Source: Heterodontus francisci
Taxonomy: Eukaryota
Length of the DNA: 64,000 bases
Assembly (NCBI RefSeq): GCF_036365525.1
Contig: NC_090398.1
Coordinates: 6,572,001-6,636,000 of the forward strand
Direction: 5' to 3'
In this document: positions 3,251 through 59,995 of the stretch, piece after piece
How positions within the stretch are numbered: the stretch's first letter is position 1
Layout of the letters: each line of letters opens with the position of its first letter
Position numbers and translations under genes: made by a program
Notes under the pieces: generated by a model
What the model was told of the DNA's origin: nothing
The model's input: the letters and a program-made list of their open reading frames with translations, nothing else
The model's database searches: none

Positions 3251-3900
3251 TTTTTTTTCTCGTTTTTTTGTCTATAAGGTGGCCTTTATACCCCAGGCCC
3301 CTTTTATATTTTTCATGTCGAGTCGGCCTTTATTCCTCAGGCCCCCTTTATAAACATACTTATATTTTTAAAATAACTTCATTAAAACCAGAAATAAACA
3401 AAAAACTCAAATTAAAATGCCATTCTCAGCGTCGACAATGCACTCCAGTCCCTGCGGTGCCCACCGGTCGCGGAAGGCCTCAAGCGTACCGGCCGACACC
3501 GCATGCTCCTTCTCCAGGGACACCTGGGCGCAAACGTAACTGCGGAAGAGGGGCAGGCAATCGGGGAGGACGGACCCCCCCGACGGCCCGCAGCCTGGAC
3601 CTGTGAATTGCCACCTTGGCCAGGCCCAGGAGCAGACCGACGAGGAGATCCTCCTCCCGGCCCACGCCCCTCCGCACCGGGTGCCCAAAGATCAGGAGCG
3701 TGGGACTGAAGTGCAGCCAGAATTTGAGGAGCAGCCCCTTCAAATACTCAAAGAGGGGCTGCAACCTCGCACACTCCGTATAAATGTGGAACACGGACTC
3801 GTCCAGGCCGCAGAAAGTACAGGCGGCCTGGGAGTCCGTGAACCTACTTAAAAGCCTATTGCACGGGACTGCCCTGTGCAACACCCTCCACCACAGGTCT
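3250..3900 (-). mobile_element. Tx1-clade (L1 group) non-LTR retrotransposon, 5'-truncated 3' fragment with zf-RVT domain, 3'UTR and A-rich tail
   Basis: Translation LWWRVLHRAVPCNRLL...CTFCGLDESVFHIYTEC...LGLAKVAIHRSR, frameshifted continuation ...AFRDRWAPQGLECIVDAENGILI* (stop 3407-3409); T-run at 3250 is the tail on -. Confidence 0.85.
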
Positions 3901-4169
3901 ATACCTGTCCTGGGAGTGTTTGACGAGGACAGTGTAGAGGGAGCTTTAAGAGAGAAAAGATGGATTTTGTCTGGTGACGAGCTCTGAAACTTCTCACTGA
4001 GGACAGATTCTCCCACTTGGCAGTGGTGACTAATCAAACTGGTTCAACTTGTATTTCTGTTCATTCTCAGTGCCTGATGATTCCCATAGTCAAAAAGGTG
4101 ACGTTCCCAGAACCCCTGGTGTCAGGTTCCATTCTCACTCACTCTGTTACTCACTCCCAGGTATCTCGT

Positions 4170-6669
4170 TTATTTATTCATTCATGCGATGTGGGCATCA
4201 CCGGCCAGGTCAGCATTTATTGTCCATCCCTAATTGCCCTTGAGCAGGTGGTGGTGAGCTGCCTTCTTGAACCGCTGCAGTCCATGTGGGGTAGGTACAC
4301 CCACTGTGCTGTTAGGAAGGGAGTTCCAGGATTTTGACCCAGCCACAGGAAAGGAACGGCGATATAGTTCCAAGTCAGGATGGTGTGTGACTTGGAGGGG
4401 AACTTGCAGATGGTGGTGTTCCCATGCATTTGCTGCCCTTGTCCTTCTAGTTGGTAGAGGTCGTGGGTTTGGAAGGTGCTGTCTGAGCAGCCTTGGTGCA
4501 TTGCTGCAGTGCATCTTGTAGATGGTACACACTGCTGCCACTGTGCGTCGGTGGTGGAGGGAGTGAATGTTTGTAGATGGGGTGCTAATCAAGTGGGCTG
4601 CTTTGTCCTGGATGGTGTCGAGCTTCTTGAGTGTTGTTGCAGCTGCACCCATCTAGGCAAGTGGAGAGTATTCCATCACACTCCTGACTTGTACCTTGTA
4701 GATGGTGGACAGGCTTTGGGGAGTCAGGAGGTGAGTTACTCGCCGCAGGATTCCTAGCCTCTGACCTGCTCTTGTAGCCATGGTATTTATATGGCTACTC
4801 CAGTTCAGTTTCTGGTCAATGGTAACCCCTAGGATGTTGATAGTGGGGAATTCAGCGATGGTAATGTCGTTGAATGTCAAGGGGAGATGGTTAGATTCTC
4901 TCTTGTTGGAGATGGTCATTGCCTGGCACTTGTGTGGCGCGAATGTTACTTGCCACTTATCAGCCCAAGCCTGGATATTGTCCAGGTCTTGCTGCATTTC
5001 TACACAGACTGCTTCAGTATCTGAGGAGTCACGAATGGTGCTGAACATTGTGCAATCATCAGCGAACATCCCCACTTCTGACCTTATGACTGAAGGAAGG
5101 TCATTGATGAAGCAGCTGAAGATGGTTTGGCCGAGGACACTACCCTGAGGAACTCCTGCAGTGATGTCCTGGAGCTCAGATGATTGACCTCCAACAACCA
5201 CAGCCATCTTCCTTTGCACTAGGTATGACTCCAACCAGTGGAGGGTTTTCCCCCTGATTCCCATTGACCTCAGTTTTGCTCGGGCTCCTTGATGCCATAC
5301 TCGGTCAAATGCTGCCTTGATGTCAAGGGCAGTCACTCTCACCTCACGAGTTCAGCTCATGTTTGAACCAAGGCTGTAATGAGGTCAGGAGCTGAGTGGC
5401 CCTGGCGGAACCCAAACTGAGCGTCACTGAGCAGGTGATTGCTAAGCAAGTGCCACTTGATGGCACTGTGCTGCGGCTGATGGCCCACAGCGCCTCATGG
5501 ATGCCCAGTTTTGCATTGCTAGATCTGTTCGAAATCTGTCCCATTTAGCACGGTGATAGTGCCACACAACACGATGGAGGGTATCCTCAATGTGAATGCG
5601 GGACTTCATCTCCACAAGGACTGTGCGGTGGTCACTCCTAACAATACTGTCATGGACAGATGCATCTGCAGCAGGCAGATTGGTGAGGACGAGGTCAAGT
5701 ATGTTTTTCCCTCGTGTTGGTTCCCCCACCACCTGCCGCAGACCCAGTCTAGCAGCTTTGTCCTTTAGGACTCGGCCAGCTCGGTCAGTAGTGGTGCTAC
5801 CGAGCCACTCTTGGTGATGGACATTGAAGTCCCCCACCCAGAGTACATTCTGTGCCCTTGCCACCCTCAGTGTTTCCTCCAAGTGGTGTTCAACATGGAG
5901 GAGTACTGAGTCATCAGCTGAGGGAGGGTGGTAGGTGGTAATCAGTTGGAGGTTTCCTTGTCCATGTTTGACCGGATGCCCTGAGACTTCATGGGGTCTG
6001 GAGTCGATGTTGAGGACTCCCAGGGCAACTCCCTCCCTACTGTATACCACTGTGCCACCACCTCTGCTGGGTCTGTCCTGCCTGTTGGACAGGACGTACC
6101 CGGGGATGGTGATGGCAGTGTCTGGGACGTTGTCTGTAAGGTATGATTCCGTGAGTATGACTATGTCAGGCTGTTGCTTGACTAGTCTGTGGGGCAGCTC
6201 TCCCAACTTTGGCACAAGCCCCCAGATGTTAGTAAGGAAGACTTTACAGGGTCGACAGGGCTGGGTTTGCCGTTGTCGTTTCCGGTGCCTAGGTCGATGC
6301 CGGGTGGTCCGTCCGGTTTCATTCCTTTTTATTGACTTTGTAGCGGTTAGGACCAACTGAGTGTCTTGCTCGGCCATTTCAGAGGGCATGTAAGAGTTAA
6401 TCACATTGCTGTGGGTCTGGAGTCACATGTCGGCCAGACCAGGTAAGGACAGCAGATTTCCTTCCCTAAAGGACATTAGTGAACCAGATGGGTTTTAACA
6501 ACAATCGACAATGGTTTCATGGTCATCATTAGACGAGCTTTTAATTCCAGATTTATTAATTAAATTCAAATTTCACCATCTGCCGAGTTGGGATTCGAAA
6601 CGATGTCCCCAGAGAGAAACCTAGGGTCTCTGGGTTACTAGTTCAGTGTCAATACCACCGCCTCGCCTA
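4170..6669 (-). mobile_element. CR1-group LINE (APE endonuclease + RT), internally deleted and inactivated, with tRNA-derived SINE-like 5' head
   Basis: APE motifs (PDIVILTES, GGGTVVY, GDFNVHH, PTRGKNILDLVLT, SDH) in ORF 5442-6404; RT motifs (DIKAAFDRVWH, GVPQGSVLG, FADD) in 4653-5342; C-terminus HHHLLKGN* then AATAAA and (ATGA/ATAA)n tail at ~4170; premature stop at 4653-4655; deletion junction ~5469. Confidence 0.92.
6360..6669 (-). mobile_element. tRNA-derived SINE head and conserved body (Meta-domain-like) forming the 5' end of the LINE
   Basis: B-box-like GTTTCGAATCC at 6601-6591, degenerate A-box near 6650-6666; body CTGGTTCACTAATGTCCTTTAGGGAAGGAAATCTG...TGTGACTCCAGACCCACAGCAATGTG resembles recalled MetaSINE consensus. 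Confidence 0.7.
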
Positions 6670-8882
6670 TATTCTATATATAAACCATCCCCCCCGATCC
6701 CCTCGATTAGATTCCAGTCTGCAACTCACTCCGGGTATCTGTTATTCTATATATAAACCCCCCGAACCCCTCGATTAGATTCCAGTCTGTAACTCACTCC
6801 CGGGTATCTGTTATTCTATATATAAACCCCCCGAACCCCTCGATTAGATTCCAGTCTGCAACTCACTCCGGGTATCTGTTATTCTATATATAAACCCTCC
6901 CCCCCGAACCCCTCGATTAGATTCCAGTCTGCAACTCACTCCGGGTATCTGTTATTCTATATATAAACCCCCCCTAACCCCTCGATTAGATTCCAGTCTG
7001 CAACTCACTCCGGGTATCTGTTATTCTATATATAAACCCCCCTAACCCCTCGATTAGATTCCAGTCTGCAACTCACTCCTGGGTATCTGTTATTCTATAT
7101 ATAAACCCCCCGAACCCCTCGATTAGATTCCAGTCTGCAACTCACTCCCGGGTTTCTGTTATTCTGTATATAAACCCTCCCCCCCGAACCCCTCGATTAC
7201 ATTCCAGTCTGCAACTCACTCCCGGGTATCTGTTATTCTATATATAAACCCCTCGAACCCCTCGATTAGATTCCAGTCTGCAACTCACTCCCGGGTATCT
7301 GTTATTCTATATATAAACCCCTCTAACCCCTCGATTAGATTCCAGTCTGCAACTCCCTCCCGGGTATCTGTTATTCTATATATAAACCCTCCCCCCTGAA
7401 CCCCTCGATTAGATTCCAGTCTGCAACTCCCTCCCGGGTATCTGTTATTCTATACATAAACCCTCCACCCCGAACCCCTCGATTGGATTCCAGTCTGCAA
7501 CTCACTCCCGGGTATCTGTTATTCCATATATAAACCCCCCAAACCCCACGATTAGATTCCAGTCTGTAACTCACACCCGGGTATCTGTTATTCTATATAT
7601 AAACCCTTCCCCCCGAACCCCTCGATTAGATTCCGGTCTGTAACTCACTCCCGGGTATCTGTTATTCTATATATAAACCCCCCGAACCCCTCGATTAGAT
7701 TCCAGTCTGTAACTCACTCCCAGGTATCTGTTATTCTATCGATAAACCACCCCGAACCCCTCGATTAGATTCCAGTCTGTAACTCACTCCCGGGTATCTG
7801 TTATTCCATATATAAACCCCCCGAACCGATGGATTAGATTCCAGTCTGTAACTCACTCCCGGGTATCTGTTATTCTATATATAAACCCCACCAAACCCCT
7901 CGATTAGATTCCAGTCTGTAACTCACTCCCGGGTATCTGTTATTCTATATATAAACACCCCGAACCCCTCGATTAGATTCCAGTCTGTAACTCACTCCCG
8001 GGTATCTGTTATTCCATATATAAACCCCCCGAACCGCTCGATTAGATTCCAGTCTGTAACTCACTCCCGGGTATCTGTTATTCTATATATAAACCCCCCC
8101 AAACCCCTCGATTAGATTCCAGTCTGTAACTCACTCCGGGTTTCTGTTATTCAATATATAAACCACCCGAACCCCTCGATTAGATTCCAGTCTGTAACTC
8201 ACTCCCGGGTATCTGTTATTCTATATATAAACCCCCCCAAACCCCTCGATTAGATTCCAGTCTGTAACTCACTCCCGGGTATCTGTTATTCTAATTATAA
8301 ACCCCCCGAACCCCTCGATTAGATTCCAGTCTGTAACTCACTCCGGGTATCTGTTATTCTATATATAAACCCTCCCCCCCCCGATTAGATTCCAGTCTGT
8401 AACTCACTCCCGGGTATCTGTTATTCTATATATAAACCCCCCGAACCCCTCGATTAGATTCCAGTCTGTAACTCACTCCGGGTATCTGTTATTCTATATA
8501 TAAACCCCCTCGATTAGATTCCAGTCTGTAACTCACTCCTGGGTATCTGTTATTCTATATATAAAAGCTCCCCCCCGAACCCCTCGATTAGATTCCAGTC
8601 TGCAACTCACTCCGGGTATCTGTTATTCTCTATATAAACCCTCCCCCCTGAACACCTCGATTAGATTCCAGTCTGTAACTCACTCCCGGGTATCTGTTAT
8701 TCTATATATAAACACCCCCGAACCCCTCGATTAGATTCCAGTCTGTAACTCACTCCCGGGTATCTGTTATTCTATATATAAACCCCCCCGAACCGCTCGA
8801 TTAGATTCCAGTCTGTAACTCACTATCGGGTTTCTGTTATTCTATATCTAAACCCCCAAACCCTCGATTAGATTCCAGTCTG
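6670..8882. repeat. ~69-72-bp minisatellite (ATTAGATTCCAGTCTGTAACTCACTCCCGGGTATCTGTTATTCTATATATAAACCCCCCGAACCCCTCG), ~32 copies
   Basis: Tandem periodicity; first unit is split by the LINE (left half at ~4143-4170). Confidence 0.96.
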
Positions 8883-34837: not shown

Positions 34838-35787
34838 TAAACATTCACTCCCTCCACCACCGACGCACAGTGGCAGCAGTGAGTACCATCGACAAAATGC
34901 ACTGCAGCAACGCATCTAGGCTCCTCCGAGTGTGCAAGAACAGAGGTGCAGGTGCATCGATCTTTGAAGGTGGTCGGATATATTGAGAGACTGGTTAGTT
35001 AAGCTTATGGGATCTTGGGCTTCATGAACAGAGACATTGAGTACAAAAGCAGGGAAGTCATGCTGAACCTTTATAAAGCTCTGGTTGGGACACAACTGGA
35101 GTATTGTGTCCAGTTCTGGTCACCACACTTCAGGAAGGATGTGAGGGTCCTTGAGAGGGTGCAGAGGAGATTTACACAGAATGGTACCAGGGATGGGGGA
35201 TTTGAGTTACAAGGTTAGGTTGGAAAAGCTGGGGTTGTTTTCCTTAGAGCAAAGGAGATTGAGGGGTGATTTAATAGAGATGTACAAGATACTGACAGGT
35301 TTAGAGAAGTTAAACAAGGAAAAACTGTTCCCAGTAACTGATGGTACAAGGACTGGGAGACACAGATTGAAGATTTTGGGTAAGAGATGCGGTGGGGGGT
35401 GGGTGGTGAAGGGATCTGAGGGAAATCTTTTTTACACAGTGGGTGGTAATGATCTGGAACTCGCTGCCCACGAGGGAGGTGGAAGTGAAGACGGTCAATG
35501 ATTTCTAAAGGAAACTGGATGGGTAATTGAGGGAAATTAACTTGCAGGCTACAGGGATCGAGCGGGGGAGTGGGACTGAGTGGATAGCTCTGCGAAGAGC
35601 TAGCATGAACCCGAATGGCCACCAGCTATGCTGGAAATGACTTAAATGAGAAGCACCTTCCAAACCTGCGACCTCTACCAACTAGAAGGACAAGGGCAGC
35701 AGATGCATAGGAACACCACCACCTGCAAGTTCCCCTCCACACCACACACCATCCTGACTTGGAACGATATCGCCGTTCCCTCACTGT
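34838..35787 (+). mobile_element. Fragment of the 4170-6669 LINE family (34838-34929 and 35652-35787) interrupted by a CR1 3' fragment (34930-35650)
   Basis: NIHSLHHRRTVAAV...RLLR | HLPNLRPLPTRRTRAA halves are contiguous in the 4170 copy; the insert encodes LYKALVGTQLEYCVQFWSP...LEQRRLRGDLIE. Confidence 0.88.
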
Positions 35788-58229: not shown

Positions 58230-59995
58230 GAATGGTACGGCACAGGATGAGGCCATTCGGCCCGTCGTGTTTGTGCTGACATTTTGTAACAGCACCTCAC
58301 CTCGTCCCACTGCCCCATCTTTTCCCCATAGCCTTGCAATTTTTTTTTCTTTTCAGATTATTATCCAGTTATTCCTTTATGAAAGCCTCGATTGAATCTG
58401 CCTCCACCACACTCTCAGGCAGTCCTTTCCAGATCCGAACCACTCACTGCCTCGAAATGTTTTTCCTCGTGTCACCTCTGCTTCTCTCACCAGTCGCCTT
58501 AGATCGGTGTCCTCTGGTTCTCGACCCCTCCGCCAATGGGAACAGTTTCTCTCTATCTACTCTGACCAGACCCCCAATGATTTTGAACACCTCGATCAAA
58601 TCTCCTCTTCTCCAAGGAGAACAGTCCCAGCTTCTCCAATCTATCCACCGTAACGGAAGTCCCTCATCCCTGGAACCATTATCGTGAATCTTTAATGCAC
58701 CCTCTCTAAAGCCTTCACATCCTTCCGAAAGTGTGGTGACCAGAACTGGACACAATACTCCAGTTGAGGATGAACCAGAGATTTATAAAATTTTACCAGA
58801 ACGTCCTTGTTTTTGTATCGATGTCTCTATAAAGCCCAGGATCCCTTATGCTCCATTAACCACTTTCTGAACCTGTCCTGTCACCTTCAATGATTTGTGT
58901 ACATTTACCCCCAGGTCCCTCTGCTCCTGCATCCCCGTTACAATTGTTCCCTTTATGTTATATTGTCTCTCCTCGTTCCTCCCCACCACAATATATCACT
59001 TCACACTTCTCTCTGTTAAACTGTATCTGCCACTTGTCTGCCCATTCCCCCAGCCTATGTCCTCCACACTATCACTATCCTCCCCTCAGTTCACAATACT
59101 TCCAAGTTTTGTGTCATCTGCATACTTTGAAATTGTGCCCTATTGTACACCCAAGTCTAGGTCATTAATATTCATGAAGAAAAGTAATGATCCTGATATC
59201 GACCCCTGGGGACCCCAATGTCCTCCAGTCCGAGAAACAACCGTTCACCAATAATCTCTGTTTCCTTTCACTCAGCTAATTCCGTATCCATGTGGATACT
59301 GTCCCTTTTATTCCATGAGCTGTAACTTTGCTCACCAGTCTGTTGTGTGGCACTTCATCAAATGCCATTTTGAAAGTCCATGTACGCCACATCAACAGCA
59401 TTGCCCTCCTCAACCCTCTCTGTTAGCTCCTCAAAGAACTCCAGCAAGTTAGTAAAACACGATTTTCCCCTTAACAAATCTGCACTGTCTTTCCTTAACT
59501 AATTCAAATTTGTCCAGGTCACTGTGAATTTTGTTCTGGATATTTGTTTCGAAAAGCTTTTCCACCACTGAGGGTAAACAGCCTGGCCTGCAGTGGCTGG
59601 TTTATCTTGACATCCTTTTTCTTTCATTCATTCGTGGGATGTGGGCGTCGCTGACCAGGCCAGCATTTATTGCCCATCCCTAATTGCCTTTGAGAAGGTG
59701 GTGGTGAGCTGCCTTCTTGAACCGCTGCAGTCCGTGTGGGGTAGGTACACCCATAGTGCTGTTAGGAAGGGAGTTCCAGGATTTTGACCCAGCGACAGTG
59801 AAGGAACGGCGATATCGTTCCAAGTCAGGATGGTGTGTGACTTGGAGGGGAACTTGCAGGTGGTGATGTTCCCATGCATCTGCTGCCCTTGTCCTTCTAG
59901 TTGGTTGAGGTCACGGGTTTGGAAGGTGCTGTCTAGGGTTGCAATTCTCTAGTCCACCGGCAGCACCCCTGAGTCTAAAGAGCGTTGGAAGATGA
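58230..59995 (-). mobile_element. Decayed CR1 LINE (RT + 3'UTR), interrupted at ~59620-59937
   Basis: RRGDLIEVFKIIGGLVRVDREKLFPLAEGSRTRGH; further RT remnants (LLEFFEE, VPQGS, ADDTKL) on -; IFQRSLDSGV segment at 59940-59995. Confidence 0.88.
59620..59937 (-). mobile_element. 3' fragment of the 4170-6669 LINE family nested in CR1
   Basis: Closely matches 4175-4485 by eye. Confidence 0.92.

Follow-up and report, generated by a model that had tools for sequence, protein, structure and literature searches.

The window, a 64,000-nucleotide stretch of Heterodontus francisci contig NC_090398.1 (positions 6,572,001 to 6,636,000), consists over its whole length (1-64000) mainly of tandem arrays, with units of 13, 31, 33, 37, 48, 51, 59, 64 and 69 bp, and shows strong strand skew. 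Beside the 69-bp array lies a LINE copy whose parts, together with related fragments, are as follows:

4170..6669, minus strand: decayed whole copy of a tRNA-headed single-ORF LINE, differing by 3.7% from the commonest letter per column across 31 copies
6580..6669, minus strand: tRNA-like head; its A-box region is damaged here and intact in most family heads
6591..6601, minus strand: B box, one mismatch to the family form
6354..6579, minus strand: conserved body common to the short SINE, with several upstream AUGs
6369..6377, minus strand: ATG-GCC and one further codon, TAG in the family (42/53 copies) and here GAG, a hotspot change
6267..6311, minus strand: Arg-rich leader in frame with the ORF; headless invertebrate relatives have similar basic leaders
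5628..6230, minus strand: AP endonuclease domain (Pfam PF03372, PF14529)
5469..5471, minus strand: site of a 776-bp internal deletion private to the window copy
4818..5336, minus strand: remaining part of the reverse transcriptase domain (Pfam PF00078)
4230..4652, minus strand: C-terminal part of the ORF, up to the family stop codon
4170..4243, minus strand: 3′ tail that the short SINE also has, with short TGAA repeats and an A-rich run at its end
6690..8882, plus strand: 69-bp minisatellite, its end unit being the element's insertion site
34839..34929, plus strand: family 3′ fragment, first piece (91 bp)
35652..35787, plus strand: family 3′ fragment, second piece (136 bp), beyond a CR1-like insert
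59622..59938, minus strand: 3′-terminal family fragment

The original prediction had read 4170-6669 (minus strand) as a tRNA-like head (B-box-like motif at 6601-6591) followed by a SINE-like body and an APE-RT ORF, the whole inserted as a single element. Both points are borne out: the endonuclease (PF14529, E 3e-14, also PF03372) and reverse transcriptase (PF00078, E 4e-24) are recognized by Pfam, and the two flanks together restore the end unit of the 69-bp array. No tRNA was detected in the window copy by ARAGORN or Rfam. The copy is dead, as had been proposed, carrying the 776-bp deletion, 8- and 5-bp deletions and an in-frame stop. Its sense-strand runs of at least four letters number 0 for T, 8 for A, 9 for C and 7 for G, in agreement with the reported lack of T4 and roughly eight A4+ runs. 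The same lack had been claimed for two further fragments, which holds for the family pieces themselves and for 59620-59937, all too short to count; the interval 34838-35787 includes the CR1-like insert (34930-35651), which interrupts the family 3′ fragment and carries T4. A 3′ fragment of a young Tx1-like LINE, 95% identical to locus L244 and with a weak zf-RVT match, lies at 3325-3930 on the minus strand.

The tRNA-type head is the 5′ end of a LINE family

A 281-bp query spanning the body-ORF boundary, searched in the 6.0-Gb genome, gave 2,374 candidates, 40 of which were scored and are 95-100% identical; body and ORF were found together at all 39 of the other junction loci. A chimera specific to this locus is rejected, since the junction is high-copy and body and ORF are joined elsewhere. 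The family element is about 3.29 kb long (3,289 alignment columns), 776 bp more than the window copy, and the 31 aligned copies (the window copy plus 30 others; 38 had a scored 3′ end, and eight of these were excluded for large inserts, deletions or duplications) diverge by 2.4-5.2% from the column-wise commonest letter. Two features that might have undone the prediction are absent from this full-length form: it has no T4, the segment deleted in the window copy included, and no longer 5′ end with an ORF1.

A head-blind sample was also taken, comprising 40 of 150 RT-scored hits chosen by score and open-frame length. Fifteen of these reach head base 1-3 and 25 are 5′-truncated, with breakpoints scattered from 338 to 2085. 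The head is present in old copies as well, 79-85% identical to the young reference (L150, L151, L154, L159, L353, L356). Target site duplication-like matches of at least 4 bp are absent in 17 of 22 scored copies, so that 5′ truncation, a fixed 3′ end with short repeats and few or no duplications mark the element as a LINE. The tRNA-type head is the 5′ end of this family.

The element was detected in sequencing runs of six organisms and one metagenome; none of its relatives was found in the viral contigs searched. In assembled transcriptome-like contigs (4 of 24 runs) family RNA is abundant, its profile being 3′-weighted like genomic copy number; such contigs tell nothing about where transcription starts, on which strand or by which polymerase. 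Among the hits examined, the family has no fully intact frame. The same genome holds young RTE (1069 codons; L340-L345), CR1 (992; L336-L339) and Tx1-like (1252; L244) elements with many intact frames.

The 5′ edge was defined on heads located through an A-box pattern, 67 from LINEs and 26 from SINEs; their retrieval favoured intact heads in both sets. The base 10 nt before the A box is G in 84% of the LINE heads and 88% of the SINE heads, and conservation collapses at position -11, to 45% and 27%, respectively. LINE and SINE therefore share their first base, which lies 10 nt ahead of the A box. In the family the A and B boxes stand 64 nt apart, start to start, and vary mainly by CpG decay; their commonest forms match the type-2 Pol III promoter consensus. 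Rfam gives tRNA-clan matches of about 21 bits to the family heads, under its cut-offs; the boxes are intact. Like a type-2 Pol III unit, the element carries its A and B boxes internally, begins on a purine a short way upstream of them and has no internal sense T4+. No source tRNA of the head was identified among 30 tRNA loci, which covered Thr and Lys only. Folding of the first 426 nt gave a z of -2.8, with no specific motif assigned.

T-run depletion in the headed family

In the window copy, zero T4 has a P of 0.02 when mononucleotides are shuffled and of 0.12 when dinucleotides are (2000 shuffles of each kind). The commonest letters of 71 family copies contain 482, 81, 8 and 0 T runs of lengths 1, 2, 3 and 4+, with 15 A, 13 C and 8 G runs of 4+, and 20 older copies give a closely similar T series (472, 86, 6 and 0). 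Four of the eight family TTT runs sit in the SINE-shared first 200 nt. T4 is absent from 31 of 40 RT-selected copies, and where individual copies do have T4, it is attributable to decay at one CpG site, to the tail, to inserts or to private changes.

Expectations were derived from a protein-fixed null, in which third positions were redrawn 500 times in five natural ORFs of the headed family; all five represent one family and are not independent tests. T4 was observed 0 times against an expected 2.0-3.5 (P 0.014-0.10 per ORF), T3+ 3-6 times against 15.4-20.7 (500 draws never went so low) and 4-of-5-T windows 1-3 times against 9.8-11.3 (P at most 0.002). Synonymous shuffling gave a P of 0.07-0.08 for zero T4. 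The comparison with codon-shuffled expectation put forward in the original prediction is hence only partly favourable: zero T4 by itself is marginal and a weak signal, and the strong signal lies at the level of the family and in shorter T-runs, T3+ being lost beyond the protein-fixed null.

Four LINE families of the same genome, which from their sequences we take to be RTE (3 copies), CR1 (3) and two Tx1-like families (2 each), served as controls and have no T-run deficit under the same null, with T4 counts of 4 (T3+ 25), 11-12, 13-14 (Tx1-like A) and 4-5 (Tx1-like B), respectively. The RTE control matches the headed family in base make-up (A.28, C.28, G.23, T.21), and the extension of TT to TTT is 0.24 in RTE versus 0.06-0.10 in the headed family (Fisher P 0.001; 4e-6 to 2.5e-3 across the controls). 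Base composition is rejected as the cause, because an element of the same composition has normal T-runs, and the loss grows steeper with run length for T only. T-runs are specifically depleted in the headed family. TT itself is also low (observed/expected 0.66-0.80), leaving room for a broader TT-avoiding force behind the loss.

T is the rarest base of the family (20%), and Phe makes up 1.8% of its protein versus 2.9-3.8% in 14 relatives. This concerns overall Phe content only; a loss of conserved Phe residues is rejected, 13 of 21 being kept versus 11-13 of 20-21 in equally distant relatives. For a wider comparison, 80 metagenome loci of invertebrate relatives yielded 70 with an ORF of 500+ codons, a T-richer set in which many contigs are short on the 5′ side. 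T4 is present in all 70 ORFs (1-49 each), seven have a T4 deficit at P<0.05 and none is at zero; no head with A and B boxes was seen upstream of any of the 70, many contigs being short 5′. According to the accessible text of one study, degenerate T-rich signals also terminate human Pol III (PMC3141230), with which loss below T4 length is consistent.

These data also bear on the weakest alternative, a neutral by-product of mutation or codon bias with the head an old fused SINE devoid of a present promoter role, which is improbable: the rarity of T, the P of 0.12 in dinucleotide shuffles and the ordinary retention of conserved Phe speak for it, and the composition-matched RTE, the T-only steepening with run length, the low overall Phe and the persistence of the head in both old and young subfamilies speak against it.

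Reading frame, relatives and the short SINE

The element has a single ORF encoding an AP endonuclease followed by a reverse transcriptase, and natural copies retain 826-956 stop-free codons. From the 5′ terminus up to the ORF there are about 300 nt, in which the longest AUG frame has 46 codons, too little for an ORF1, and the first 350 nt of the family hold ten AUGs. Among 53 head-bearing copies, the codon after the last in-frame ATG-GCC is TAG in 42, GAG in 10 and CAG in one; nine older copies covering the site have TAG (7) or TAA (2). The ATGs at 6389 and 6377, proposed earlier as in frame, are so in the window copy by virtue of its GAG and are closed by TAG in those 42 family copies. Beyond the TAG the family frame is open for about 975 codons, and its next in-frame AUG is codon 291, past the endonuclease. 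The expectation that non-canonical translation would be required consequently stands, the in-frame AUG of the family being closed by TAG with none further before codon 291.

A subfamily with an open AUG is rejected: the GAG variant is what a CTA>CGA hotspot would produce, and TAG or TAA stands at the site in older copies. In the family alignment this CpG-creating change occurs on both strands at 3.5% per site versus 0.15-0.8% for other T>G contexts, i.e., at 4-20 times their level, and is strongest after CC.

Between 16 older headed copies (4 of 20 were dropped, being as near or nearer to the young set) and 15 young ones there are 63 synonymous and 25 non-synonymous codon differences; private changes in the same comparison number 434 and 685. 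The ORF of the headed lineage evolved under purifying selection while the head was present. This synonymous bias between headed subfamilies suggests that the headed element made its own protein, probably translated from headed loci. The leader frame shows 4 synonymous and 5 non-synonymous changes, too few to show selection. Some 220 residues that match this ORF (86% against the query; 76% over 252 columns) lie in an aldo-keto reductase gene model of Heptranchias perlo (XP_067854341.1), where they are likely a mis-annotation and possibly an exonisation.

In a quick RT tree (47 rows, its careful search unfinished) the family falls among invertebrate CR1/L2-type elements (SH-aLRT 99), apart from the CR1, RTE and Tx1 elements of the shark. 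With about 28% identity to the CR1 of this genome, a separate branch and no ORF1, it does not belong with vertebrate-type CR1. Its nearest branches are single-ORF invertebrate LINEs, 37-43% identical, that share the basic leader and a single APE-RT ORF of about 930-1050 aa. Nine relative loci were inspected, and none has an upstream stop-free frame over 121 codons; in eight an AUG is close to the APE start. Absence of ORF1 is ancestral, and neither this absence nor the basic leader is an effect of head capture, because both are shared by relatives with no tRNA head. These relatives (metagenome proteins 40-43% identical, and lepidopteran elements, likely CR1-Zenon) differ from the window family in having an AUG shortly before the endonuclease at eight of the nine loci and T4 runs in all 70 ORFs, with no A- and B-box head seen. 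A search with PF09004 for an L2/Rex control gave no match, and a cluster atlas lookup returned generic RT clusters only.

The short SINE was recovered with its own junction search, which gave 4,955 candidates, 30 of which were fetched and measure 379-400 bp. In all 30, nt 1-~315 of the LINE are fused to the last ~75 nt of the same LINE, and the joins seen fit a single origin with small later deletions. Of the traits that define SINE2 elements, the tRNA-like head with A and B boxes is found in the LINE, and shortness and lack of coding capacity only in its partner, which consists of the 5′ and 3′ ends of the autonomous element as in bipartite systems. The autonomous LINE and its SINE have head, body and tail in common, a novel structure. 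In a tree of the 93 shared regions (unrooted, with bootstrap support not settled) older LINE copies interleave with SINE groups, and LINE/SINE labels change 4 times versus a shuffled mean of 26.8, three of the changes being forced by well-supported branches. As older LINE copies sit within SINE groups, the head appears to have been shared between the two over time. One SINE subfamily (the L260-L289 set) has lost 9 nt, including the TAG, by deletion between short direct repeats.

Several known systems come close. SacSINE1 and LmeSINE1 (DeuSINEs), set beside the short SINE by description and not by sequence, likewise have a tRNA head, a conserved body and an L2-group LINE tail (463 bp compared with 383-400 bp here). 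With their partners, L2-2_CM or a CR1-4_DR-like LINE, only the tail is shared in the accessible accounts (PMC5499810; PMC3747384; PMC2746220), and only tail homology is reported there between SacSINE1-type SINEs and L2-2_CM (PMC5499810), whereas here the LINE has the whole head and body. Bipartite elements such as Bov-A/Bov-tA, RTE-N and Vingi also join a 5′ part of a LINE to its 3′ part, but in the available description the tRNA head is confined to the short element and the clades are RTE, Ingi, Vingi and R2; here it is an autonomous CR1/L2-type LINE that is headed (PMC5786205). In the Repbase comparison of that same partial text, RTE and Vingi were the only cases of 5′ sharing between SINEs and LINEs, and RTE-1_DAn was set aside because of its tRNA-like sequence (PMC5786205). 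RTE-1_DAn and elements related to it, LINEs whose tRNA-like sequence matches many SINE2 elements, are thus similar but of the RTE clade, and are compared here through a one-sentence description that gives no sequence position, promoter role or T-runs (PMC5786205). The TRIMp3 elements Cassandra, Helenus and Ajax are further non-SINE retrotransposons with a small-RNA-derived Pol III promoter; in the accessible text they are short, non-coding LTR elements whose autonomous partners are argued to need Pol II (PMC10886601). No tRNA-headed autonomous LINE in sharks was found in the literature searched, which took in neither subscription papers nor Repbase/Dfam, and a motif search of the supplements of PMC5804259 and PMC4824008, one file excepted, gave no match.

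Transcription and translation of the headed family

A high-copy single-ORF APE-RT LINE with an A/B-box head and few T-runs is best accounted for, with a probability of about 0.6 from sequence evidence, as an autonomous LINE transcribed by Pol III and likely translated without a cap. TFIIIC and Pol III would make a 3.3-kb RNA, and selection would have purged canonical as well as degenerate terminators. The protein would be made from the same RNA, and the least certain steps are those of translation. Ribosome entry might take place at an AUG close to the conserved body's end, where the base at -3 is a purine and that at +4 is G. Translation might then proceed by read-through of UAG-CAA or by reinitiation at a non-AUG codon; one or the other is invoked because no further in-frame AUG precedes codon 291, which lies past the endonuclease. 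A UAG with CAA after it is prone to leak, and L1 ORF2 provides a known case of AUG-independent reinitiation. The SINE probably derives from this LINE by removal of the coding middle, or else is its long-standing partner in module swapping. Reporter RNA made from type-2 Pol III promoters can be translated, with output approximately doubled on removal of TTTT, in the accessible part of PMC8223928. Translation is nonetheless hard to explain given ten upstream AUGs and the in-frame TAG, and the Pol III reading is strained by a length of 3.3 kb, far above the 100-700 bp given as usual for SINEs in the available text of PMC10886601.

A bolder form of this proposal is offered tentatively, at a little below even odds: that the family is a natural, long-lived protein-coding Pol III unit of vertebrates, in which the LINE reshaped 3 kb of coding sequence, Phe content included, against terminators, the SINE-shared body serves cap-free ribosome entry and amber read-through, and a widespread conserved shark SINE body is the 5′ end of this LINE.

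Alternatively, Pol II could make the RNA, with the head acting as a Pol II promoter or RNA-processing module and T-runs being avoided for other reasons, such as splice-site pyrimidine tracts or U-rich decay and sensing. LINEs are considered Pol II transcripts in the accessible portions of both PMC5786205 and PMC10886601, capped RNA is easier to translate, and TT is depleted as well as T4. We regard this as unlikely, if still the strongest competitor: four other LINE families, presumed Pol II-transcribed, have no T-run loss, the start base is identical to that of the SINE, 10 nt before the A box, and the A and B boxes of the family are intact. The leader kept upstream of the tRNA-like part would, in addition, argue against RNase P-type trimming.

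Less likely again is a division of labour in which Pol III RNA is copied, hence the loss of terminators, and translation relies on capped RNA that Pol II makes by reading through the same or nearby copies. This would account for the 5′ edge and the T-run loss with no need for cap-free translation past ten AUGs and a TAG, and abundant family RNA with a genomic-copy profile in transcriptome-like contigs is in keeping with it. However, purifying selection along the headed lineage (63:25) requires tight linkage of RNA and protein, and the TAG and upstream AUGs impede capped RNA too.

If Pol III does transcribe and supply the coding RNA of this LINE, the family would break the accepted split, stated in the available texts, between LINEs as Pol II-transcribed and coding and SINEs as Pol III-transcribed and non-coding (PMC5786205; PMC10886601), and would let both cap-free translation and Pol III processivity over 3.3 kb be tested in a natural system. 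The origin of conserved SINE bodies is termed completely unknown in the accessible text of PMC5786205, where their origin and purpose are posed as an open question. As the conserved body here doubles as the 5′ untranslated region of an autonomous LINE, a role in translation or ribosome recruitment is directly testable.

The 3′ tails of LINE and SINE copies contain T4+ in 25 of 159 cases; T-runs ahead of A-runs are also common in the flanks (123 of 1249). These 25 tails are near-palindromic, a T-run with an A-run, and their length distribution dips at 3 and peaks at 5. Such T/A tails may either have arisen from A tails by fold-back mutation or serve as Pol III terminators built into the element.
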